DNA of 64,000 nt from Promethearchaeota archaeon (GTDB taxonomy: Archaea > Asgardarchaeota > Lokiarchaeia > Sigyniarchaeales > SOKP01). The notes under the pieces were generated by a model. The model did not search any database, was not told the origin of the DNA, and saw only the letters and a list, made by a program, of their open reading frames with translations. Each line of letters starts with the position of its first letter. The stretch's first letter is position 1. The translations under genes and the position numbers were made by a program. Below are positions 36,973 through 52,307 of this stretch, in pieces. Location: assembly GCA_013375475.1 (NCBI GenBank), contig JABXKD010000004.1:10659-74658 (forward strand), in the 5' to 3' direction.

Positions 36973-39960
36973 ATGAGTAGTACAACAATAAAATACCCCT
37001 CAGAAGAGATTATATCTACATTTAATGTTAATAAAGATTTCGAGTACATTATACTTTGGATGCTTCATAACAATGATCGTTGCAGATGGGCTGATTTTAA
37101 AGCTAATCCTTTAAATATTAGTCAAGCTTCGTTATCTAAATATTTAAAACTGATGATAGCAAACGACCAAATCTTAAGAGAAAAAAAAGGGGAGTATAAG
37201 ATTACTCCTGAAGGGCGAAAACATTACATAGAAATACAATTAAAAGATTCTCTGACAGAACAATTGAACTACCCCCCTGAAGTCATCCTGAGAAGAAGAA
37301 ACTATGATCACATCATACTTTGGATGTTATACAATAATAATGTGTGTAAATGGTCAGATTTCTTTGAAGAGCCTCTCTCTATCAATAATTCTTCTCTCTC
37401 CAAAAATCTAGGGTTGTTAAAGGCCAGCGGATTAATAGATCACGATATTAGTTTAAAAGAATATCGAATTACAAAGAAAGGTGAGGCAAAATTCTTCAGT
37501 GTATTGAAAAGGTACGATTTGGATAGACAATCAATATTAGAGGAGGAGAGTAAAAGAATTGAGGTAATTACAGATAAAGTTAGTAAATTCTTTAGTGAAT
37601 ACGAAATTGAATCCGATGAGATAAAGTACCGGTTTTTAAATATCGTTTTAAGATTAGATTATACCCAAATAGAAAATACTTTAGCCAACGAGAACGAACT
37701 TAACAAAATTATGCTATTTTTGTCCCTTAATCACCCAGATCAATATCCTGATTATATAAGTGTCACCAATTTTTCTTTAAAATACAATATCAAACCCACG
37801 ACATTAAAATTCTTTCTTGAGAAAATTGTTAAGGAGGAAGGTTATCCTATTAAATTTTTTGAGTTAGAAGTAAGCAATGACATAACGTACTATATTCAAG
37901 CAGAAGAAAAGCTGGAGAAATTACTAAATGTTATCGTAGAGGATCATATTAGAAAATTTACATATTTGAATAAATTAAACAAAAAAGAAGGAGTAGACAA
38001 CTCAGAAATCAATGCTTTGGTTGAACTCATAGCTAATGAAATATGTACTAATGTATTTAACGAGAATTTAAAGCCATCAATGAATAAATTTCTCCCCGAA
38101 TTTATTGAAAATCTTGCGTATAAGTTTGAAAGTGAGAAGAGTTTAATCACACAAGATGATAAAACAAAAGGAGTTATTTATCAAAAGTTTCAGAATGTTT
38201 TCGAAGTAATCCAAAGTTTTGGAACTTCGGAGGCGGCGAGTTCGGCAAGTAAACCGATTGACAACGAAGCGTATTATTTCTTGCATAATAGAATATTTGA
38301 CACATTGGACATAATTTATCTCTCTAAAATCGATTTCTTCCGCATACCCGAGTTTAAGAAAGCGTATTTTTCAAAGAATTCTGGTTTTCTCTCAGCTATA
38401 GAAGAGAAGATGTCAAAAGGCAGTCTATCGAAGGCAAGCGAATTGCTTACAGATAATATTATTAACTTGAGTGACATCGAATTAATGATTTTAAGAGATA
38501 TTATCTACACAAGTAAAGGAGAGTTAGAAGATTCATTGGAGCTAACTCAAAAGATTATAGAGAAATATCCGGATGAGTATGTTGGCTACTTGTTCCAATC
38601 AGAAACGTATTTTTTGATGGGTAAATTCAAGGACGCTTTGAGCGTTGTAGAATTAGGCTTAACCAACGCCTTCGACGTCTTGTTAATAACTCAAAAAGCA
38701 CAGATTCTTATTAGTTACGATCATAGTAAAGCCGTGGAAACAATAGATGAAGTTATTGAGGACTACCCTGAGAATTTTGCCTTATTGCGTACGAAATTTT
38801 TAACTGTAATGACCGATAAAGAATGCTGCATAGGACCGATTGCTGCACCCAGAGCACTAATAGAATCGCTAATAGACGAGTATCCTGATAATTTTGAATT
38901 GAAGGTTTTGAAAGGATTGTTATATATCGTAAACCATCAATACCAAGAAGCTAAAAATTGGATTAAAGAGAGCATAAAACCAGATATTTCTGAAAATAAT
39001 CCACGAATTGACATTGCCTCATATTTAATTCGAACATACTCATATTTAGCTCGGGGAAAGTTTGAAAAAGCGTTGAAATACGTGAGAATCGCACAGTTTC
39101 ATTATCCAAATCATCCAATTTCCCATATAATGACTGGGTTGGTTCATGGATTTAATATTGTTTACAAATTTGATCCTAAGAAAGAAAACAAGGAGCTATT
39201 CAGAGAAGGATTTAAAAAAGCGATTTCGATGCAGCAAAGCGAGAAAAAATTGTCAAGATATTATCAACTGGAATGTTTAATATTAAACGAGACAGATGGG
39301 TTCGATGAGGCGGTTAATGCAATCGATAAAGCAATCGAATTAAGTCCGGAACACTTTGATATATACAACACAAAGGCTCACATATATTTAGCGCTTAAAG
39401 ACAAACAAGAGGAGGTATTCAAGTTTTACGACGAATTATATGAGAAATTTCCACACGAAGATAAGGACATTCGTAAAATGAAATCGTTTTCGCATTATTC
39501 ATTTGGAAACTTAGTAGAAGGAATTAATATTCTTGAAGAAAGTCTTGAAATATATCCGGGCTCGATAGGCATGTTAAACAACCTTGCTGTGTTTCTCAGT
39601 TATTCGGGGAGATTCGATGAAGCAATAGAAGCGATTGAAAAAGCAATTGAAATAGATCCAAATGAAGCGAACCTTTATGATACGTACGGTGAAATTTTAC
39701 TTCTTGCAAATGACTATAAAGGCGCTATAGAAAAGTTTGTTCAAGCATTAGACATGAGTCCAACGGGTTGGTTTGCATTTCATTCTTTTTTGAAACTTTC
39801 GAAAAGTTATAAAGCTCTGGGAATGATGGAGGAAGCTAGGACTTGCTACGAGAAAGCAGAGATATTAACAGAAAAAGTTCTTCCTGGAAAAAGAAAGATG
39901 TATATGGAACAATTAGATGAGATTATCGAAGAACTAGGCAAAGTACCCATACAGAAATGA
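36973..39960 (+). CDS. 995-aa protein: two N-terminal winged-helix (wHTH) modules, central helical region, C-terminal TPR array
   Basis: Duplicated module FEYIILWMLHNNDRCRWADF...LSKYLKLMIANDQILREKKGEYKITPEGRKHY / YDHIILWMLYNNNVCKWSDF...LSKNLGLLKASGLIDHDISLKEYRITKKGEAKF. Clear TPRs in the last approx 450 aa, e.g. AIEAIEKAIEIDPNEANLYDTYGEILLLANDYKGAIEKFVQALDMSP. Confidence 0.7.
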   Translation: MSSTTIKYPSEEIISTFNVNKDFEYIILWMLHNNDRCRWADFKANPLNISQASLSKYLKLMIANDQILREKKGEYKITPEGRKHYIEIQLKDSLTEQLNYPPEVILRRRNYDHIILWMLYNNNVCKWSDFFEEPLSINNSSLSKNLGLLKASGLIDHDISLKEYRITKKGEAKFFSVLKRYDLDRQSILEEESKRIEVITDKVSKFFSEYEIESDEIKYRFLNIVLRLDYTQIENTLANENELNKIMLFLSLNHPDQYPDYISVTNFSLKYNIKPTTLKFFLEKIVKEEGYPIKFFELEVSNDITYYIQAEEKLEKLLNVIVEDHIRKFTYLNKLNKKEGVDNSEINALVELIANEICTNVFNENLKPSMNKFLPEFIENLAYKFESEKSLITQDDKTKGVIYQKFQNVFEVIQSFGTSEAASSASKPIDNEAYYFLHNRIFDTLDIIYLSKIDFFRIPEFKKAYFSKNSGFLSAIEEKMSKGSLSKASELLTDNIINLSDIELMILRDIIYTSKGELEDSLELTQKIIEKYPDEYVGYLFQSETYFLMGKFKDALSVVELGLTNAFDVLLITQKAQILISYDHSKAVETIDEVIEDYPENFALLRTKFLTVMTDKECCIGPIAAPRALIESLIDEYPDNFELKVLKGLLYIVNHQYQEAKNWIKESIKPDISENNPRIDIASYLIRTYSYLARGKFEKALKYVRIAQFHYPNHPISHIMTGLVHGFNIVYKFDPKKENKELFREGFKKAISMQQSEKKLSRYYQLECLILNETDGFDEAVNAIDKAIELSPEHFDIYNTKAHIYLALKDKQEEVFKFYDELYEKFPHEDKDIRKMKSFSHYSFGNLVEGINILEESLEIYPGSIGMLNNLAVFLSYSGRFDEAIEAIEKAIEIDPNEANLYDTYGEILLLANDYKGAIEKFVQALDMSPTGWFAFHSFLKLSKSYKALGMMEEARTCYEKAEILTEKVLPGKRKMYMEQLDEIIEELGKVPIQK

Positions 39961-40009: not shown

Positions 40010-41149
40010 TTATCTAGTATGTTCTTTTACGAGTTTTACTAAATCTGCTTTTCTATAAGAAGCGAGCACTTTAATATTGTTTTCATTGCAATAGTCTTTT
40101 AGTTGGTTCACTGTCCATCTGTTATAGTCAACCCATTTATCAACGCTCTCTTGAGGGGCCCCCTTCAGTATGAGATCTATAATTTGTTCTTTCCTGTAAG
40201 AAGATGGAATGTGAATATTTTTCTCTTTACAGTATAGTTTTAGATTACTTACCGTCCATGAGTTGTAATCAACTTCTTCTTCCTTTACAACAACTTTTTC
40301 CACAATTTTGGGCGCTTCTACTCTTTGGAGTATTTCGATTCCTTCTATATTCCCGGAGGTGCTGTTTGTATACAACCTTATTGTTCGATCGGTAAGTTCA
40401 ATTGGACCTTCTGGTACTGAGTTTACCGGTTCCCATTCTACTTCCTCGACTTCTTCTCCGAATACTTTTGCTTTTTTTACTACTGCTCCGTATATTTGAA
40501 AATCTCCTAAAAGCAAGTTTTGCCGTTTAAAATTGGCGGGAACTTTATTGATCACGATATTCTCAAGTATGTTTTTAGTATCTAGCTTAGTAGGTTTGAA
40601 ATTTGGTTTAAATTCATAGATAGTTTCCTCTTCCTCTTCTTTTTTTACCTCTACCGGAATTTCAGTTTCGTCATTCATCACAGGTGGAGAGCCCGTCCAT
40701 TTATGAACTGCTTTATCGCTAATTTCGGCCACTTCTTTGATAGTGTTAGCATGTAATTGTCTAAATTCCTCAGAATCTCTTTCTAATACTTCGGGAATTT
40801 CCACAGGTTTCAAATTAAAGGCTCTCATAAATTCGAGAGGTTCGTCTCCTTGATCTACTGAAATAATCTTGCATCGATGAAAGTGTCCTTTAACAACAAG
40901 CTCGTTTTGTAACTCGGCAGCGATACGAGACGCGATAAACTTTTTCCTAACGTGTGAATTCACTCCTTTCCAAATGTAAATTCTCCTTAATCCCTCTTTA
41001 ACGATCACTAAAACTTGGTGAGGATTGAGGATGTCTTGCCCGTTATTAGCGCGAAATTTATCTTCTGATATCTCTAGTTTTACTTTTTCTCCAGTACTTT
41101 CTAATCCAAAGATCATGAAGTTCTCGTAAGTTTCAGCCATACTTATCAT
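40010..41149 (-). CDS. Gelsolin-domain protein with two C-terminal SAP/HeH-like repeats
   Basis: N-terminal approx 115 aa: VLVIVKEGLRRIYIWKGVNSHVRKKFIASRIAAELQNE...ISVDQGDEPLEFMRAF fits the gelsolin-repeat pattern (iyiWxGxxss...k..Aa..A..L......v.qG.Ep.eF...F). C-terminus (approx 40022-40273): VDYNSWTVSNLKLYCKEKNIHIPSSYRKEQIIDLILK and VDYNRWTVNQLKDYCNENNIKVLASYRKADLVKLVKE. Confidence 0.6.
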   Translation of the reverse strand: MISMAETYENFMIFGLESTGEKVKLEISEDKFRANNGQDILNPHQVLVIVKEGLRRIYIWKGVNSHVRKKFIASRIAAELQNELVVKGHFHRCKIISVDQGDEPLEFMRAFNLKPVEIPEVLERDSEEFRQLHANTIKEVAEISDKAVHKWTGSPPVMNDETEIPVEVKKEEEEETIYEFKPNFKPTKLDTKNILENIVINKVPANFKRQNLLLGDFQIYGAVVKKAKVFGEEVEEVEWEPVNSVPEGPIELTDRTIRLYTNSTSGNIEGIEILQRVEAPKIVEKVVVKEEEVDYNSWTVSNLKLYCKEKNIHIPSSYRKEQIIDLILKGAPQESVDKWVDYNRWTVNQLKDYCNENNIKVLASYRKADLVKLVKEHTR

Positions 41150-41440
41150 AAATTAGGTATCATTTTTTTAATTTAAAAATACGACAACTCTGTTGAATTA
41201 TGTAAATACGATCTCTTAGTAGGTTTGATCCATAAAACTTTAACTTTTTTTTTGACACATAAATCATCTGGTAAGTCAATATAAAATTATTGAAATGGAA
41301 TGTTTGTGATTGAGGAAGGAATGCTCTTATTGTTTTTTAGTATAGTTTAATAGGCATTATCTATTTTATTCGTTAAGTTTTGTGAATTTTAGCACATTTT
41401 TATCTCATTCTGCTTGAAATTTCGTTTGTGATTTTATTTT

Positions 41441-42687: not shown

Positions 42688-43524
42688 TTAATCTTTTAAG
42701 AAATCCATTATTTGTTGATTAACTTCTGGTACTTTCTCGAGAGGACTATTATGTCCTGCTTTATCAACGACATGTATTGTACTATTTGGTAAAAGTTCAT
42801 GCATTTCCTCCATGGACGATTTTGGAGTTATTCTATCGTGAGTTGCTGTTACTAGAAGTACAGGATTTGAAATGTTTTTTAGTCTATCTTTTGTATTATG
42901 AACTTTCAAAACATTACCCTGTAATTCAATTTCATGCTCTGTTGCAATATTTTTTGTACTTTCTTCAATAAGTTCATCTACTGACCATAATCCATACCAT
43001 TTTTTAGAAGGTTCTGCTTCCATCTGTTTTCTAAATTTAATATAATATCCTGTTCTCGCAGTAGACCAAAAAGCTTTAACAGGATCTTCTTTTTTAAGCT
43101 TTTCTTTTTCAAGTCGCATGTTTTTATAAGCTTCTGGACCAGATTCATCAGGAGTACCAGCGTTAGTATTGATTAAAACAACTTTATTTGCTCTCTCCGG
43201 ATACTTCAATACGAAGTTTTGTACCAACATTCCCCCTAAACTCCAACCGATTATATGAATCTTATCGATATTTAAATGGTCCAATAAACCTTTAATATCT
43301 TCAACGAAATCATCCAATTCATATTTGTCTTTAGTTCTACCGGAGTTACCTGCTCCACGATTATCAAACCTTATAACCTTGAAATTTTTTGATAATTCTG
43401 GTGTCTGAGCTCTCCAACCTTCCTTTGTATCTCCAAACCCATGAACTAATAACACAGGATAGCCATCTCCAAAAATTTCATAACATATTTTTATACCATT
43501 AACTTCAGTAAAAGATTCTACCAT
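42688..43524 (-). CDS. Alpha/beta-fold hydrolase, tandem copy 3
   Basis: HGFG oxyanion region, nucleophile elbow GWSLGG, C-terminal AGHNSPLE. Confidence 0.8.
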   Translation of the reverse strand: MVESFTEVNGIKICYEIFGDGYPVLLVHGFGDTKEGWRAQTPELSKNFKVIRFDNRGAGNSGRTKDKYELDDFVEDIKGLLDHLNIDKIHIIGWSLGGMLVQNFVLKYPERANKVVLINTNAGTPDESGPEAYKNMRLEKEKLKKEDPVKAFWSTARTGYYIKFRKQMEAEPSKKWYGLWSVDELIEESTKNIATEHEIELQGNVLKVHNTKDRLKNISNPVLLVTATHDRITPKSSMEEMHELLPNSTIHVVDKAGHNSPLEKVPEVNQQIMDFLKD

Positions 43525-43603
43525 ATTAATCTCCTAAATTTATATAAATCAAAACAAGTTTTAATTGATTTTAAGGTTTTTCCATATGAAAAAAAACTAA
43601 GAC

Positions 43604-44452
43604 TTATTGTTTTAGAAAATTAAGAACTTCCGTGTTAAAGATTGGAGCTTCTTCTAACATAAAATAGTGACTGCTCTTGAAGACGATTAGATTACTATTT
43701 GGGATTTTTTCATCAATAACCTCGCTAGCGATTTTGGGCACAATTCTATCTTTTTCAGCAGCTAAGATTAAAGTTTCAGATTTGATTTCATGAAGATGTT
43801 TTGTGGTATTATGGCGTGTAATCGCGTTTATTAGATTAAGGATATCTTGTGGTTTTGATGTCCCATTTACTTCTTCAAGTTTCATTAAATCTTTTGCAGA
43901 GAACTTATTGTGAAAAATTTTACTTGGATCTTGGTTCATTTCCTTAAAGAAATTACGACTGAACCTTTGTTTCATTTTATCCCAAAAGGCTTTCGTAGAA
44001 TCTTCGACTTTTGCTTCATAATTTGAGAGTTGACTTCTTTTATACATATCCAATCCTGATTTATCCAAGGGTAGATTAGCAAAAGTACTCATTAGAATCA
44101 ATTTGCTTAGGCGATTCGGGTAATTTAGCGCAAAATGTTGCGCGATCATGCCACCAAACGAATGACCGCCAAGATGAATCTTCTCTATATTTAAATAATC
44201 TAATAACGCTCTGATATCATCAGCTAAATCTTCCATAGAGAATGTTTCAGTAGGGTGGTCTGATTTGCCACATCCACGAATATCAAGTGTGATTACTCTA
44301 AATTCTTTAGAAAGTACTTTAACTTGCCACTTCCAGAATTCTTTATACATTGCGAACCCATGTAAAAAAATTAATGGATAACCTTCGCCATGAATTTCGT
44401 AAGCAATTTTAATACCATTTAGTTCTGCATAAGATTCTTTCATTCCATTCAC
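43604..44452 (-). CDS. Alpha/beta-fold hydrolase, tandem copy 2
   Basis: LHGFAMY, GHSFGG, SSHYFMLE. Colinear with its neighbours. Confidence 0.8.
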   Translation of the reverse strand: MNGMKESYAELNGIKIAYEIHGEGYPLIFLHGFAMYKEFWKWQVKVLSKEFRVITLDIRGCGKSDHPTETFSMEDLADDIRALLDYLNIEKIHLGGHSFGGMIAQHFALNYPNRLSKLILMSTFANLPLDKSGLDMYKRSQLSNYEAKVEDSTKAFWDKMKQRFSRNFFKEMNQDPSKIFHNKFSAKDLMKLEEVNGTSKPQDILNLINAITRHNTTKHLHEIKSETLILAAEKDRIVPKIASEVIDEKIPNSNLIVFKSSHYFMLEEAPIFNTEVLNFLKQ

Positions 44453-44462
44453 AATAGTACGT

Positions 44463-45299
44463 TTATGATTTTAAAAATTTAATAATTGCCCTATTAACTT
44501 CGGGCGCTTTTTCTTTTGGAGACTCATGTCCTGCTTCTTCTATTAAGTGATATGTGCTATTTGGCATTTTTTTATGAATCTCAAGCATTTTTTCCTTAGG
44601 AACTAATCTATCGTGAGAAGCGGTAAGAAGTAAGGTTTTATGGTTAATTTCAGATAATTTTTCATAGACATTATTTGTTTTAAAGGACGATGCTATATTT
44701 CGAACATCTTGAGCTGTTGGGCGGTCAGTTTTATAGTATTTAAGAACATCTTCTACTGACCACAACCCATAAAATTTTTCTTTAGGATTTGCCTTCATTT
44801 TATTTCGAAATTTATGATAAAATCCAAATTGAGTACTCTGCCAAAATGATAGCTCCGGATCTTTTTTAGCAAGTTCCAAAGCTTTAATTTTAGAATTAAC
44901 ATATGATTCGGGGTCGAAGTCATCAGGAAGTTGTGCTAAAGTATTTATTAAAACCAGTTTATTCACTCTTCTTGGATTTTTTAAAATGAAATTTAGGCCA
45001 ATCATTCCTCCTAATGAAAGTCCCAATAAATGGGCCGTACTAATTCCTAAATAATCCATCAAACCCTTAATGTCATCTACAAACATTTCCATAGAGTAAG
45101 GCATATCTGGTCGTTCAGATTTACCAGCTCCTCTATTATCAAACGAAATTATCTTGAATTCTTGTGATAGAACAGGTATTTGTGCCATAAAACTTTCTTT
45201 TTTTGAACCAAATCCGTGGATCAAAACAACAGGATATCCGTCTCCCTGCATTTGATAACAAATTTTAATGCCGTTTATGTCTACAAATTTTTCTGCCAT
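44463..45299 (-). CDS. Alpha/beta-fold hydrolase, tandem copy 1
   Basis: IHGFGSK, GLSLGG, AGHESPKE. Closest to copy 3 (both begin ...NGIKICY.. and end ..PEVN..I..FLK). Confidence 0.8.
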   Translation of the reverse strand: MAEKFVDINGIKICYQMQGDGYPVVLIHGFGSKKESFMAQIPVLSQEFKIISFDNRGAGKSERPDMPYSMEMFVDDIKGLMDYLGISTAHLLGLSLGGMIGLNFILKNPRRVNKLVLINTLAQLPDDFDPESYVNSKIKALELAKKDPELSFWQSTQFGFYHKFRNKMKANPKEKFYGLWSVEDVLKYYKTDRPTAQDVRNIASSFKTNNVYEKLSEINHKTLLLTASHDRLVPKEKMLEIHKKMPNSTYHLIEEAGHESPKEKAPEVNRAIIKFLKS

Positions 45300-45403
45300 A
45301 CATAGTGTAAAAATAATATGAAAATAAGTTTAATCAAAAAAATTTTAAATTTGTTTTACTTTTATCTTCGTATTCTTAATTCTAATATCTTGAAGTATAT
45401 CTT

Positions 45404-46165
45404 ATGATTGAGAAAAAAATTCTAATTCCTAATGCTGAAAGGAGCGATCTCCACGGTGTCTTTTATTTTGCTTCCGAAGAAAACCCTTCACACAGATCGC
45501 CCATTCTAATAATGTGTCATGGATTCACAGGTGATAAATACGAGTGGGGACGCTTTCCTGAAACAGCGAAAGCTTTAAATAAAGAAGGTTATGATGTGCT
45601 TATATTTGATTTTTCTGGCTCTGGGGAAAATAAAAGAGAACCGATAAATTTATCTAAACAAGCCTTGGATCTGGAAAATGTATATAATTGGGTTAAAAAT
45701 CAAAGATATTCAAAAATTGCTGTATTGGGGCTTTCTTTTGGAGGTCAGACAGTATTAAAGGCAAAGCTACCTGGAATTATTTCTTATGTATTTTGGGCTC
45801 CCCTTACCCTGCTCCACACTACAGGAGACCAAACTGACTGGTTTAAGGATATAGATAAGGGACCCGTAGAAATTCCGACATCTGGAGAAGGTGGCCCTGT
45901 AATTATTGATATGAGCTTTGTGATGGATGTTGCTGAATTTCAAGTAAGACCTGCTTTGAAGAATTTAACTCCCCCAACTCTTATAGTTCAAGGTACTGCG
46001 GACGAAAAAGTCCCTTTGGAATTGACCAAAAAAGCTTTCAGTATGATGCCTCAGAACGACAATCATAAGTTAGTAGAAGTTCAAGACGCGACACACGATT
46101 TTAAAGATAAACACTTACAAGAATTTATCAAAGAAACAGTAGATTGGTTGAAAATTTATTTCTAA
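45404..46165 (+). CDS. Alpha/beta hydrolase (dienelactone-hydrolase / S9-like)
   Basis: CHGFTGDK, GLSFGG, QGTADEKV, ATHDF: a Ser-Asp-His arrangement. Confidence 0.7.
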   Translation: MIEKKILIPNAERSDLHGVFYFASEENPSHRSPILIMCHGFTGDKYEWGRFPETAKALNKEGYDVLIFDFSGSGENKREPINLSKQALDLENVYNWVKNQRYSKIAVLGLSFGGQTVLKAKLPGIISYVFWAPLTLLHTTGDQTDWFKDIDKGPVEIPTSGEGGPVIIDMSFVMDVAEFQVRPALKNLTPPTLIVQGTADEKVPLELTKKAFSMMPQNDNHKLVEVQDATHDFKDKHLQEFIKETVDWLKIYF

Positions 46166-48555: not shown

Positions 48556-51138
48556 TCATTGATTAGTGATAATGTCAGATATTAATTTAGGAAAGTCTCT
48601 CCATTGATTTAATGTTAAAAGAACTCCATCAGCTTCTTTTACCATTTTGTTTGCCATTACTGGAGAAAATCCGAATTTTGGGACAACCATAACGAATCTT
48701 ATATCTTTTTCTTTCATTAATTTTAATTCCCTTAGACTATTATTGAAGTCAAAAACATCTGCGTCAGTGAAAAGTATATTGATTTTGTACTTCGAGCGCG
48801 CTTTTTTTTCAAACTGAAGGTTTGCCCATTTAAGTGCGTGGTTTATGCACGTGCCTCCTCTTGCGGTAATATCGAGTAATTCATCCACAACTTTTTCTAA
48901 TTCAACTTCCTCGTCAAGATTCTTTAACTTATGTGTATTAGATTCAAAAAAAGTGAGTGCGAGTTCTTCTGGTTTAAAGGCATATACCAACATTGTTGTA
49001 CATAACGCCATTTGAGCTAACTTGTTTCCTGACATGCTTCCGCTAATGTCCAGTTCAAGAACCAAGCATCGGAGACCATCGGTAGTTTTTGATACAAGAA
49101 AATCGTCGTTGGTAATGGTTTCTACCGTTTTTCCACCCTCCAATAAATTACTTATAGTCTCTTCTAAATCAATTAATTCAAAATCGTCTCCTAAAGTGTA
49201 AGGGATCACAACGTTCTCTACAAGAGGTCCGGACTTAGCGGTACCAATTAAAGAATTTGCCGCATTAATACCTAAATCAATCATTATTTGTTTTATGATC
49301 TCTTTCAGCCTCGTCTTGATTTTAGCCGAGACATTATGTCTTGAATAAAACCATTGCTCCAAAAGATCCAAACCGCTCCCCGCTCCAAGAGAGGAGAACG
49401 CCATATCAAGAGCATCGTCCCCCATTTGCTCAGCAGACTTTAATACTTGAGCTAGATTTTTCTCGCTTAACGCGCTCAGAACTTCTAAATTAGGTGGTTT
49501 TTGGGGAGCTCCTCCTAATGCTATTTTAACTATCTCGTCAATCTGCTGGGGAGTTAATCCCAACTGTTCAAGATATTCCTTATATGTCTGGTAATCCGAT
49601 TGATTCTCCTTAACTAATTGTTTAAAGATTTTATAGCTCTTCTCGATTAAGTTAAGAACCTCTGTCTCAGTCATTCCGAGTCTTTTACCTGCATTTTTTA
49701 TGGAATTTATATCGGGAGAAAAACCCATCTTGTTAAAATCTTTGACCATATTTTTTAACGACTCTTTACTCGCAGCATTTTCGACTGCTTTATCAACTAA
49801 TTCAGAAACTTTATTATTCAGTTGCGATTGGCAAGAAAGATCACTACAATTATTTTTAGATTCATTTAAGTTATCGATGTAATTCTTCATCTGGGCATCA
49901 ATCATTTGTCTATCGTTGTAATCGTCGCTAATTGATTGTAAATCTTTATCAATAATCTTTGACATTAATTTTCGCCATGCAGGAGTCTTAATAGGGTTGT
50001 TAATTAATTCCTGTTTAATGTCAGTTGAACTTTTTCCTTTACTAAAATTATCGAAATTTTCGTTAATCTCGTTTAGATATTTTTCGCTTAGACTGTCTCC
50101 AAAAAATTGATCAAAATTCTTTGCGTTATTATAAGCGTCTTTAAACGGCAGATTCAAACTGCTGTTTAAAATATCATCCATTTTATTCTTCGCTAAATTG
50201 GGATTTGATCCCAAGATTTTTGACGTGTTAAAAATATCGTTTAAGTTCTTGTTGGATTTAGAAAGATTTTGTTTCAAAAGATTTTTTACTATATCTTGAC
50301 CTTGCTGGTTTAATTTATTAGATTTCAAGGCAAATTCTGCGATGTTCAACCCTTCAAAGGAATTTTTGCTTAAAACTTTCGATAGTTTTTCTTTAAATTT
50401 GTCCAAGTTTTTGTCCTTAGCCAGTTGAGATATCATTTTTTCTTTTAACGATTCAGATTTTGATATTATATCGTCTAACAAATCTAATTTTTCAGCTGCA
50501 TCTATATCCTCGGGCTCTAAATGGTTCATTTTGTTTTTTAATAATTCTTTTGCGTAATCGATCATTGCCTTTAAATCTTTAAATTGATTGAAGTTGGGTA
50601 TCGCGTTCTTATCTATGACATCTAAAGCGGTCTTATATGGATCTTCTTCCAATTCTTTACTAAATCGGTCAAAAAAATCGTTTAAACTCTCGTCCATTAG
50701 CTGGTCTAAATCGAGATCTTTTAATTCATTAAAAAAATTTTCTAATAATTCAAAATCGTCAAAAACCTCATCTAACTCGCTTAAATCTAATCCTATATCA
50801 TCAAGCAAGTCTTGGGCAGTCTCACTCCCAAACATATCAGATTTTATCACATCAGAAGACATACGGTTTTTTGAGGGATCGTTATAAGATAATAGTTCAG
50901 TAGCAATTTTACGAGCTAATGCTTGGTTTTCAAGAGGACTGGTAACGACTGCTATTTCGATAAAATCGCTAACTTCACACGCACCTCTATTCATAAACCT
51001 CGCGAGAATTAATTTGCAAATAGCGATTGCTTGACGAACCGACGGCTTATACATACATTTTTCGTGGTTTCGTAAGGCCGTTATAAATTTAAGTGAAAAC
51101 CAAACTGGGCTTTGGGGGAAAATTATCATCCAAATCAA
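48556..51138 (-). CDS. 860-aa protein with C-terminal von Willebrand factor A (VWA) domain
   Basis: MIDAS motif LVLELDISGSMSGNKL, followed by ARGGTCINHAL and ILFTDADVFD. The preceding approx 600 aa are acidic, Asn/Lys-rich and coiled-coil-like. The start codon choice is uncertain. Confidence 0.75.
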   Translation of the reverse strand: MIWMIIFPQSPVWFSLKFITALRNHEKCMYKPSVRQAIAICKLILARFMNRGACEVSDFIEIAVVTSPLENQALARKIATELLSYNDPSKNRMSSDVIKSDMFGSETAQDLLDDIGLDLSELDEVFDDFELLENFFNELKDLDLDQLMDESLNDFFDRFSKELEEDPYKTALDVIDKNAIPNFNQFKDLKAMIDYAKELLKNKMNHLEPEDIDAAEKLDLLDDIISKSESLKEKMISQLAKDKNLDKFKEKLSKVLSKNSFEGLNIAEFALKSNKLNQQGQDIVKNLLKQNLSKSNKNLNDIFNTSKILGSNPNLAKNKMDDILNSSLNLPFKDAYNNAKNFDQFFGDSLSEKYLNEINENFDNFSKGKSSTDIKQELINNPIKTPAWRKLMSKIIDKDLQSISDDYNDRQMIDAQMKNYIDNLNESKNNCSDLSCQSQLNNKVSELVDKAVENAASKESLKNMVKDFNKMGFSPDINSIKNAGKRLGMTETEVLNLIEKSYKIFKQLVKENQSDYQTYKEYLEQLGLTPQQIDEIVKIALGGAPQKPPNLEVLSALSEKNLAQVLKSAEQMGDDALDMAFSSLGAGSGLDLLEQWFYSRHNVSAKIKTRLKEIIKQIMIDLGINAANSLIGTAKSGPLVENVVIPYTLGDDFELIDLEETISNLLEGGKTVETITNDDFLVSKTTDGLRCLVLELDISGSMSGNKLAQMALCTTMLVYAFKPEELALTFFESNTHKLKNLDEEVELEKVVDELLDITARGGTCINHALKWANLQFEKKARSKYKINILFTDADVFDFNNSLRELKLMKEKDIRFVMVVPKFGFSPVMANKMVKEADGVLLTLNQWRDFPKLISDIITNQ

Positions 51139-51164
51139 TTCTAAATTTTAATTATGATTCTAAA

Positions 51165-52307
51165 TTACGCAGATCCTAATACCTGAGAAATAATATTGCT
51201 AATAACATCTTTAGATTTAACACCAGGCTTAGTCTGGATTGCTCCAAATAGCACATTGCTCGCAAGACTTCGAAGAATTTTATTTGGTTCCTCTGTTTTA
51301 TTTCTTTTTTGTGCCACACCAGTTAATCGAGCTAACGCAATACCACTTCGTAAACTTGCAGGTGACTGTATTTGATGATGAGTGCGCGTTCTATTGATAA
51401 TCAAGTATATTTTTTCTAGTATACTTTCTTCTACTTTATAGTAAGGATTGTTGTGTTCGATTATCTTCATTTCAGTTTTCTTATCTGGATAGTCAAGTTC
51501 AATCCAAACATTAAACCGATCCTTTAAAGCTTCACCTAATCGGTGTGTTCCTACCAATTCAGAAGGATTCATCGCACCAATAAAGAAAAATCCGGGTGAC
51601 GCTTTTACACGTCCTATATGTGGAACTGATACCGTTTTTTCTTCTAACGGTTCCAATAACGAGTTTTGCGTATATTCAGTAGCACGATTCACTTCGTTTG
51701 CTAAAAATAAGCCACCGTTTAACATAGCTTTTATGAGTGGGCCAGGGTTAAACGCTTCGAACGAGAACCCCTTCTGAATCGTAGTTGCGGGGTTAAAAGA
51801 ACCAATCAAGTGAGCTGGTTTCGTAGATTCGTCAAATGTAATCCACTCGAACGAGTCGTTTCCTGTAATCTCTGCCCGTGACTGAGCATAATACCTACAT
51901 AGCGTTGTTTTACCAATTCCGGGAGGTCCTACCAGAATTGGGTATAAATTAGAAGCATCAGCTTCGAACATTAAATCAAGAGCTTGTTCGTATTGCCCAG
52001 TCATTACTATTTCTAGTTTTTCCTCTTTCTGGGAAAGTAAACTTCTATCAAATAAATCTTTAAGAGTTGGTTTCTTTTGAGGTGTTTTGGATTCATTTTT
52101 CTGCTTTAAATAGGGAGAACTTTTCAAAATTGAAAGATTGTCCAGTACCTTTACTTTAGGTTTTTGTGGCGTTACTTTTTTAGGAGTAGGTTTTTGAGTT
52201 GTCGTTTTACTTGTCGTTTTACTTGTTGTTGTGCTAGTGGGAGCTGGTTTTGCATCTTTTTGATCTTTATTCATTTGATTATTTTTAGTTACGAGTTTCT
52301 TAGCCAT
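51165..52307 (-). CDS. MoxR-like AAA+ ATPase with T/K/P-rich low-complexity N-terminal tail
   Basis: Walker A LVGPPGIGKTT. MoxR box LFLANEVNRATEYTQNSLLEPLEEKTVSV, where the Walker B position reads N-E rather than D-E. Sensor region GAMNP. Tandem TSKT-TSKT repeat (12-nt DNA repeat around 52200-52240). Confidence 0.8.
   Translation of the reverse strand: MAKKLVTKNNQMNKDQKDAKPAPTSTTTSKTTSKTTTQKPTPKKVTPQKPKVKVLDNLSILKSSPYLKQKNESKTPQKKPTLKDLFDRSLLSQKEEKLEIVMTGQYEQALDLMFEADASNLYPILVGPPGIGKTTLCRYYAQSRAEITGNDSFEWITFDESTKPAHLIGSFNPATTIQKGFSFEAFNPGPLIKAMLNGGLFLANEVNRATEYTQNSLLEPLEEKTVSVPHIGRVKASPGFFFIGAMNPSELVGTHRLGEALKDRFNVWIELDYPDKKTEMKIIEHNNPYYKVEESILEKIYLIINRTRTHHQIQSPASLRSGIALARLTGVAQKRNKTEEPNKILRSLASNVLFGAIQTKPGVKSKDVISNIISQVLGSA

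Follow-up and report, generated by a model that had tools for sequence, protein, structure and literature searches.

The window analysed here, a 64,000-nucleotide stretch of contig JABXKD010000004.1 from a Promethearchaeota archaeon, carries on its minus strand a gene (40010..41149, stop codon at 40010-40012) whose open reading frame encodes 379 amino acids from the first ATG. A second ATG, at 41140, is the start used by gene callers and by nearly all homologues; it yields a 376-residue protein beginning MAETYENF, and residues are numbered here from this second start (the 379-residue frame is offset by +3). The product has a mass of 43.6 kDa and an isoelectric point (pI) of 5.6. It is built from an N-terminal gelsolin domain, a middle domain and two C-terminal repeats of the helix-extended loop-helix (HeH) or SAP type, and is a lineage-specific version, with a duplicated HeH motif, of a known and widespread Asgard family. 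All of the features described below lie on the minus strand unless otherwise stated.

The gelsolin-homology domain occupies residues 1-112 (40805..41140) and is defined by PDB sequence matches, an AlphaFold model, Foldseek and a conservation of 0.86-0.88. In a single-sequence search of the PDB, residues 28-114 match the Thorarchaeota ProGel chain 7c2f_B (E 6.2e-5), with further matches of the gelsolin part to 2DGel3 and to the Heimdall 2DGel; with a family profile, the ProGel match rises to E 2.8e-6 and the Lokiarchaeota 2DGel is added. The Pfam Gelsolin model (PF00626) stays below threshold on the window protein (15.7 bits with E 0.014, the gathering score being 21), and several close homologues have a precomputed match to it. 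An AlphaFold model of the whole protein was built on 48 homologues. In this model residues 8-107 adopt a beta-beta-alpha-beta-beta-long alpha-beta-alpha arrangement, with predicted local confidence (pLDDT) of ~65-83, for which the best Foldseek match in the PDB is again 7c2f_B, ProGel on actin (E 1.1e-5, target TM score 0.73, root-mean-square deviation 3.3 Å). All 11 PDB matches at E <= 1e-3 are gelsolin-family domains, and after 7c2f_B the list continues with eukaryotic domains by the dozen, from gelsolin, adseverin, CapG and villin. The N-terminal domain, which a first-pass annotation of the window had described as gelsolin-like from the letters alone, is thus shown by both sequence and structure comparison to have a gelsolin fold, closest to that of the Thor ProGel crystallised on actin.

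The most conserved stretch of this domain is a long helix, residues 62-85 (SHVRKKFIASRIAAELQNELVVKG), and the domain terminates in VDQGDEPLEFMRAF. The helix by which ProGel and gelsolin G1 contact actin is this best-conserved part of the family. Given that the conserved helix is common to ProGel, and given the published activity of a Thor 1DGelX protein (see below), we infer that the gelsolin domain of the window protein binds actin. A weak match to the Pfam family DUF7904 (PF25480) recurs over the second half of the domain in the window protein and in many relatives, always below threshold (E 0.005-0.17); DUF7904 may itself be an unrecognised gelsolin-like family.

At the opposite end of the protein lie two HeH/SAP-type repeats, residues 289-326 (40163..40276, pI 8.2) and residues 336-376 (40013..40135, pI 9.3), which are 50% identical in protein and 61% identical in DNA sequence and are the sole basic patches of the protein. 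Four Pfam models pass their gathering scores on the whole protein (Ish1, 44.9 bits against 26.6; Rho_N, 36.0 against 24.9; HeH, 34.7 against 28.9; SAP, 28.5 against 23.9), and each of them matches two stretches. AlphaFold models each repeat as a helix, a 10-residue loop and a second helix (297-306 and 317-326; 344-353 and 364-375) with pLDDT 77-86, and the lysine that opens helix 2 is invariant in 36 of 36 repeats. When the HeH pair was searched against the PDB as a single sequence, nothing was returned, and a profile of the repeats gave weak PDB matches only, namely to 2out, a Mu-like prophage protein with an HeH-like motif (E 0.022), and to the Tho1 SAP domain (E ~1). The tandem SAP/HeH repeats proposed by the first-pass annotation are therefore upheld by family scores, by the modelled helix-loop-helix and by conservation in relatives. 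Since structure prediction finds the gelsolin fold and the repeats hold in both the model and the homologues, we regard the original observation of a gelsolin domain joined to HeH motifs as confirmed.

The two repeats are not of equal standing. When compared with the single HeH of five one-repeat relatives (clade B, below), repeat 2 is the closer in four (55-63% identity, against 47-55% for repeat 1), and in the fifth the two are tied at 50%. This identifies repeat 1 as an inserted duplicate and repeat 2 as the ancestral terminal copy. Separately, a set of other proteins of 243-771 residues (P0198, P0199, P0212, P0216, P0226, P0230, P0235, P0241, P0247 and P0250) was found with the repeat hidden Markov models (HMMs) to consist of arrays of 2-5 HeH/SAP/Rho_N repeats; their repeats resemble those of the window protein (profile E 1e-15 to 1e-26), and they carry no other confident domain.

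Between the two ends, the first-pass annotation had placed an acidic linker and an unassigned middle domain of ~150 residues. The region exists, but it is not a single domain: it resolves into a helix, a short motif, a disordered linker and a folded domain of ~90 residues. The helix (residues 124-140, 40721..40771) is predicted with low confidence and is moderately conserved. A WH2-like motif (TIKEV) within it was considered and rejected, as it is not conserved across the family. The motif KKVHxWxGPPP (K143..W148.G150-P-P-P153; residues 143-153, 40682..40714) emerges from the alignment of homologues, in which K143, W148 and P153 are invariant and G150 and P152 nearly so, and it is specific to the two-HeH lineage. 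The variable disordered linker that follows (residues 154-185, 40586..40681) includes the acidic run EVKKEEEEETIYEF; this run is present as described but is not conserved among relatives, and for that reason we assign it no functional role. The pLDDT is below 50 across residues 132-185. In all, a flexible linker of ~75 residues joins the gelsolin domain to the middle beta-domain.

The middle domain proper spans residues 186-276 (40313..40585) and is made up of five long beta-strands preceded by an N-terminal helix. Every subfamily conserves it, with invariant N, K, F-G, W, P, L and E residues, and a model of the domain alone, based on 42 diverse copies taken from the two subfamilies, has a confident fold (pLDDT 83, pTM 0.68). 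It has no match in Pfam and no relative among PDB sequences, and Foldseek returned nothing credible, the best matches being at E 0.21 in the PDB (TM score ~0.3) and at E 0.11 among the viral structures of BFVD. Matches to fluorescent-protein barrels were dismissed as spurious (TM score ~0.3, root-mean-square deviation at least 9 Å and mostly above 11 Å). The middle domain is an orphan relative to the Pfam, PDB and BFVD libraries, and it is likely to be the 'X' of GelX, the published class of Asgard proteins to which the window protein is compared below.

A search of 5.8 billion proteins returned 370 homologues, and a further homology search 749. The best 120 of the 370 are nearly all full length (342-392 residues, with one partial record) and 56-87% identical, and all four blocks of the protein are conserved in more than 120 full-length homologues; conservation at such identities indicates that the features are not chance. 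Every name-giving source calls these 120 proteins hypothetical, and some of the relatives with one HeH bear at NCBI the name 'Rho termination factor N-terminal domain-containing' or 'HeH/LEM domain-containing' protein, in which the gelsolin domain is missed. The closest relatives among the matches are in metagenome-assembled genomes (MAGs) of Promethearchaeia/Lokiarchaeota, and every named match of the family is from an Asgard MAG. The affiliation of these relatives, along with the Ras/Roc GTPase and GOLPH3 genes of the window described below, marks the source as an uncultured Lokiarchaeial Asgard archaeon.

To dissect the architectures we used sub-domain HMMs for the gelsolin domain (GEL), the middle domain (MID) and HeH. 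Searching 1.84 billion cluster representatives with a profile gave 443 clusters (50% identity) at E up to 1e-3, and found the combination of gelsolin and HeH in this Asgard family only. The conserved core is GEL-MID: 48 representative clusters have this core without a further recognised domain, one HeH is added in 17 more clusters and in 12 fragments, a second middle domain is added in 3, and the two-HeH form is a single 50% cluster. Among GTDB species genomes, 183 loci encode relatives, in MAGs that bear the labels Loki, Thor, Odin, Hod and Hermod, with two or three family loci in each of several MAGs. In the best 80 of these loci the commonest architecture is GEL-MID-HeH (62, with Thor-, Odin-, Hod- and Hermod-labelled MAGs among their sources), followed by GEL-MID-HeH-HeH (11), GEL-MID with other tails (5), GEL-MID-MID (1) and one interrupted two-HeH orthologue. 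The tandem HeH is confined to one Lokiarchaeial lineage, with 11 intact species copies and ~130 proteins. The first-pass annotation had not recognised its combination of domains among described Asgard gelsolins; the GelX class is in fact published and the single-HeH architecture is the usual one, so that what is particular to this lineage is the tandem arrangement. The interrupted orthologue (L012, MAG isolate 33X4, 2998-4125) matches query residues 1-376 by tblastn, but the frame that opens at its start codon stops after 35 codons; it may be a pseudogene or carry a frameshift, or else the assembly is in error there. The GEL-MID-MID variant (~390-480 residues), in which the orphan middle domain stands in tandem and HeH is missing, is found at L072 and in P0124, P0138, P0146, P0371, P0373, P0375, P0376, P0379, P0380 and P0385.

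A rough neighbour-joining tree of the GEL and MID cores resolves three groups. Members of clade B have one HeH and no terminal motif, and the two-HeH form of the window is a single lineage inside it. In its sister, clade A, a terminal RRxLPKIP motif comes after the one HeH, and the deeper clade C has basic tails and the RRxLPKIP motif but no HeH. More fully, the extreme C-terminus conserved in clades A and C is [KR]RxL[PK]xIP with acidic residues after it, as in RRQLPKIPSKED or KRALKKIPS (L077, L051, L058; P0124, P0141, P0153, P0351-P0387 and others), an ending that the clade of the window protein has lost. We take this motif to resemble a class-I SH3 ligand (RxLPxhP) and, in some members, the LKK[TV] element of WH2/thymosin sequences.

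The position held by HeH is occupied by other modules in some relatives. A group within clade B (P0139, L062, L083) carries an (HhH)2 domain there (HHH_5 at 34.2 bits and E 3.5e-8, the gathering score being 27). In clade A, proteins placed beside HeH-bearing ones have tandem APKKKPA(T/S) repeats instead, with a net charge of +14 to +29. These repeats, in full APKKKPA(T/S)xK(T/S), sit between the middle domain and the terminal motif and resemble tails of the histone-H1/SPKK type (P0150, P0351, P0357, P0358, P0362, P0369, P0370, P0374, P0377, P0378, P0382, P0383, P0386 and P0387); one such tail has a weak, sub-threshold Pfam match to the histone-H1-like HC2. In the tree, both the HhH and the PKKKP variants fall within groups of HeH-bearing proteins. 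HeH, HhH and SPKK/H1-like repeats are classic non-specific DNA-binding elements, and two independent swaps among them suggest that binding of nucleic acid, probably DNA, is under selection at the C-terminus. For the window protein itself, the basic pI of the repeats, their invariant lysine and the replacement of HeH by HhH or PKKKP repeats in relatives indirectly suggest DNA or RNA binding, which the tail swaps support without proving.

We read the gene product as an actin regulator, modular and soluble, that belongs to the GelX (1DGelX) type of Asgard archaea, and propose that it may act as a tether by which its tandem HeH motifs link the nucleoid to the capping or severing of actin, or to the ends of filaments, a proposal that we judge to have an equal chance of being right or wrong. 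The gelsolin domain would engage Lokiactin monomers or filament ends at the barbed face through its conserved long helix, as ProGel does, and would cap, sever or sequester actin in the way that a Thor 1DGelX protein does in vitro. The flexible linker would allow the C-terminal half to reach a second partner, and there the HeH pair would bind double-stranded nucleic acid, most likely chromosomal DNA, without sequence specificity and with an avidity raised over that of a single copy by the duplication. Such a protein would place an actin-regulating activity or a filament end at the nucleoid, or make actin turnover responsive to DNA, and the middle domain may give the contact with the filament side, or the self-association, required of a single gelsolin domain if it is to sever. 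The principal support for the DNA step is comparative, in that the same C-terminal position holds HeH, (HhH)2 or H1-like PKKKP repeats.

Three other explanations were weighed. One is that the C-terminal modules (middle domain, HeH and basic repeats) are all F-actin side-binding elements which, like the villin headpiece, enable severing or bundling, with no part for DNA. A gelsolin core followed by a flexible linker and a small C-terminal helical module does parallel villin, and polycationic tails can bind the negatively charged surface of F-actin; but no villin-headpiece match was found in Pfam at E up to 10, HeH and (HhH)2 are not known as actin binders, the independent replacements are all elements of DNA-binding type, and the universally conserved middle domain is the better candidate for side binding. 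We think this explanation unlikely. Another is that the HeH pair and the basic tails of relatives bind RNA, ribosomes or acidic membranes, with actin regulated at sites of translation or at the membrane and its protrusions. Rho_N is among the matching Pfam families and Lokiarchaeal cells have actin-filled protrusions, points that speak for such a target, whereas the window protein has no amphipathic or transmembrane element (the maximum 19-residue Kyte-Doolittle hydropathy is 0.89, well under the transmembrane value) and HhH domains typically bind DNA; on balance we find it distinctly improbable. Very improbable, in our estimate, is that the HeH repeats are protein-protein or oligomerisation modules that bind no polyanion, the HhH and PKKKP tails then reflecting unrelated divergence of paralogues. 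LEM domains, which have the HeH fold, do bind the protein BAF rather than DNA, and with two or three paralogues per genome function may have diverged. The window repeats, however, match Ish1, Rho_N, HeH and SAP with no LEM family in the Pfam list of the protein, and the recurrence of basic tails of DNA-binding type in both subfamilies is hard to ascribe to chance.

Several observations weigh against coupling of actin to DNA as proposed above. Some relatives have a second middle domain, or just a short basic tail, where HeH would be. Polybasic tails bind F-actin, RNA and acidic lipids as well as DNA, and motifs of the HeH/SAP/Rho_N type are sometimes not DNA binders. No cytoskeletal link was seen among the neighbouring genes, so that the genomic context of the window gives no functional clue. 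The well-folded middle domain has no obvious fit to the 'disordered' X of a 2025 preprint on GelX. Lastly, the protein fits the GelX class by architecture, taxon, size and paralogue counts, and orthology to the two characterised members, KXH72031.1 and UYP44381.1, neither of them recognisable among the listed matches of the homology searches, is putative.

Asgard actin regulators are central to ideas on how eukaryotic cells originated, and GelX/1DGelX is their least understood class. If the actin-DNA link is true, coupling of actin to the chromosome is older than the nucleus; if it is wrong, HeH would be a new kind of actin-associated module. A broader extension, tentative and in our view rather doubtful, is that the GelX family as a whole is an ancient Asgard actin-chromosome adaptor in which interchangeable, non-specific DNA-binding tails (HeH, HhH and H1-like) fix to the nucleoid either Lokiactin filament ends or an activity that severs and caps. 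Such an adaptor would imply actin-based positioning, compaction or segregation of DNA before a nucleus existed, and would be a functional forerunner of the cytoskeleton-chromatin links that involve HeH/LEM proteins at the eukaryotic nuclear envelope.

The gelsolin gene is divergent with respect to a gene for a major facilitator superfamily (MFS) transporter and convergent with a gene for a 995-residue protein (36973-39960, plus strand), and from this arrangement it looks like its own transcription unit. A TATA-like element, TTTTTAAATT (41171..41180), read from the sequence ~26 nucleotides 5' of the first ATG, suggests that the gene has a transcript of its own, leaderless or with a short leader and running divergently from the transporter gene; the window as a whole is AT-rich (GC ~32%). 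The convergent neighbour has N-terminal matches to winged-helix helix-turn-helix (wHTH) domains, with two similar segments visible by eye, and a long TPR array. The order of MFS transporter, gelsolin gene and wHTH-TPR gene is kept in close relatives, and the pairing of the last two is kept at loci L001 and L002 at 70-75% identity. Adjoining the transporter gene are four alpha/beta-hydrolase paralogues in a row (42688-46165; three on the minus and one on the plus strand), and a similar cluster is held by the syntenic loci L001 and L002.

Elsewhere in the window, a few kilobases from the gelsolin gene, lie two genes for eukaryote-like signature proteins: a GOLPH3/GPP34 homologue (33781-34389, minus strand; Pfam E 2e-11) and a 437-residue small GTPase of the Ras/Roc family (30681-31994, minus strand; Ras E 6.5e-39). 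At 48556-52307 (minus strand), a gene for an AAA_5 (MoxR-like) ATPase adjoins one for an 860-residue protein with a C-terminal VWA domain, after which comes a 786-residue protein with no Pfam match. No Rfam family was found across the whole window.

Compared with known systems, the C-terminal repeats are of the kind found in yeast Heh1/Src1 and Heh2, the LEM-like motif of LAP2, SAF-A, the SAP domain of Tho1, the Rho N-terminal domain, fungal Ish1 repeats and phage proteins such as FluMu gp35 (2out): they share the ~35-residue helix/extended loop/helix, the hydrophobic pattern and the lysine of helix 2. In contrast to Heh1/2, MAN1 and LEM2, the window protein has no transmembrane segment and, by Pfam, no MSC/winged-helix domain, and its motifs are fused to a domain of actin-binding type; for lack of the membrane segment and the MSC domain it is not a membrane-anchored LEM/HeH protein. 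Villin, advillin and supervillin have a gelsolin core, a flexible linker and a helical module of ~35 residues at the C-terminal end, and the model of the window protein has a similar layout of gelsolin-type core, linker and small terminal helical module. Villin, however, has six gelsolin domains to the one seen here, the terminal module of the window protein is of HeH/SAP type, and without a headpiece the protein is not villin-type.

ProGel and 2DGel (from Thorarchaeota, 7c2f, 7c2g and 7c2h; from Loki and Heimdall, 7whg and 7whf) are the best matches to residues 1-112 and have in common with them the KK(F/L)(I/M)xxR(I/V)AAxL helix. They differ in overall construction, ProGel being a gelsolin domain alone and 2DGel two such domains, neither with a middle domain or HeH.

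The closest parallel is with 1DGelX/GelX. Thor 1DGelX (KXH72031.1) binds rabbit actin with a Kd of 7.7 uM; at low ratios it nucleates, its severing of filaments does not depend on Ca2+, and an actin side-binding element was proposed in its C-terminal extension (Akil et al. 2020 PNAS, PMC7444086). B35_GelX of L. ossiferum (UYP44381.1, 39.97 kDa) co-immunoprecipitates with Lokiactin, and its X is described as a disordered domain of unknown function (bioRxiv 10.1101/2025.11.30.690169). A 2022 paper gives two or three 1DGelX paralogues per Loki genome (MK-D1, GC14_75). The window protein resembles these proteins in having one N-terminal gelsolin domain, a long linker and a non-gelsolin region with no second gelsolin domain, and in belonging to a family that is restricted to Asgard archaea, has a size of ~40-43 kDa and is present as two or three paralogues per genome. 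We found no literature that links Asgard gelsolins (GelX) with HeH, SAP or HhH modules. Relative to family members labelled Thor or Odin, the window protein sits in a paralogous subfamily; its HeH is duplicated and the terminal RRxLPKIP motif is missing. The published X is given as unknown, coiled-coil or disordered, whereas that of the window protein is an orphan beta-domain followed by HeH motifs. What is new here is this anatomy of X, a folded orphan domain plus one or more HeH motifs, together with the interchange of DNA-binding-type tails in two paralogous subfamilies, and it is these that turn a link between actin and DNA into a concrete and cheaply testable hypothesis.

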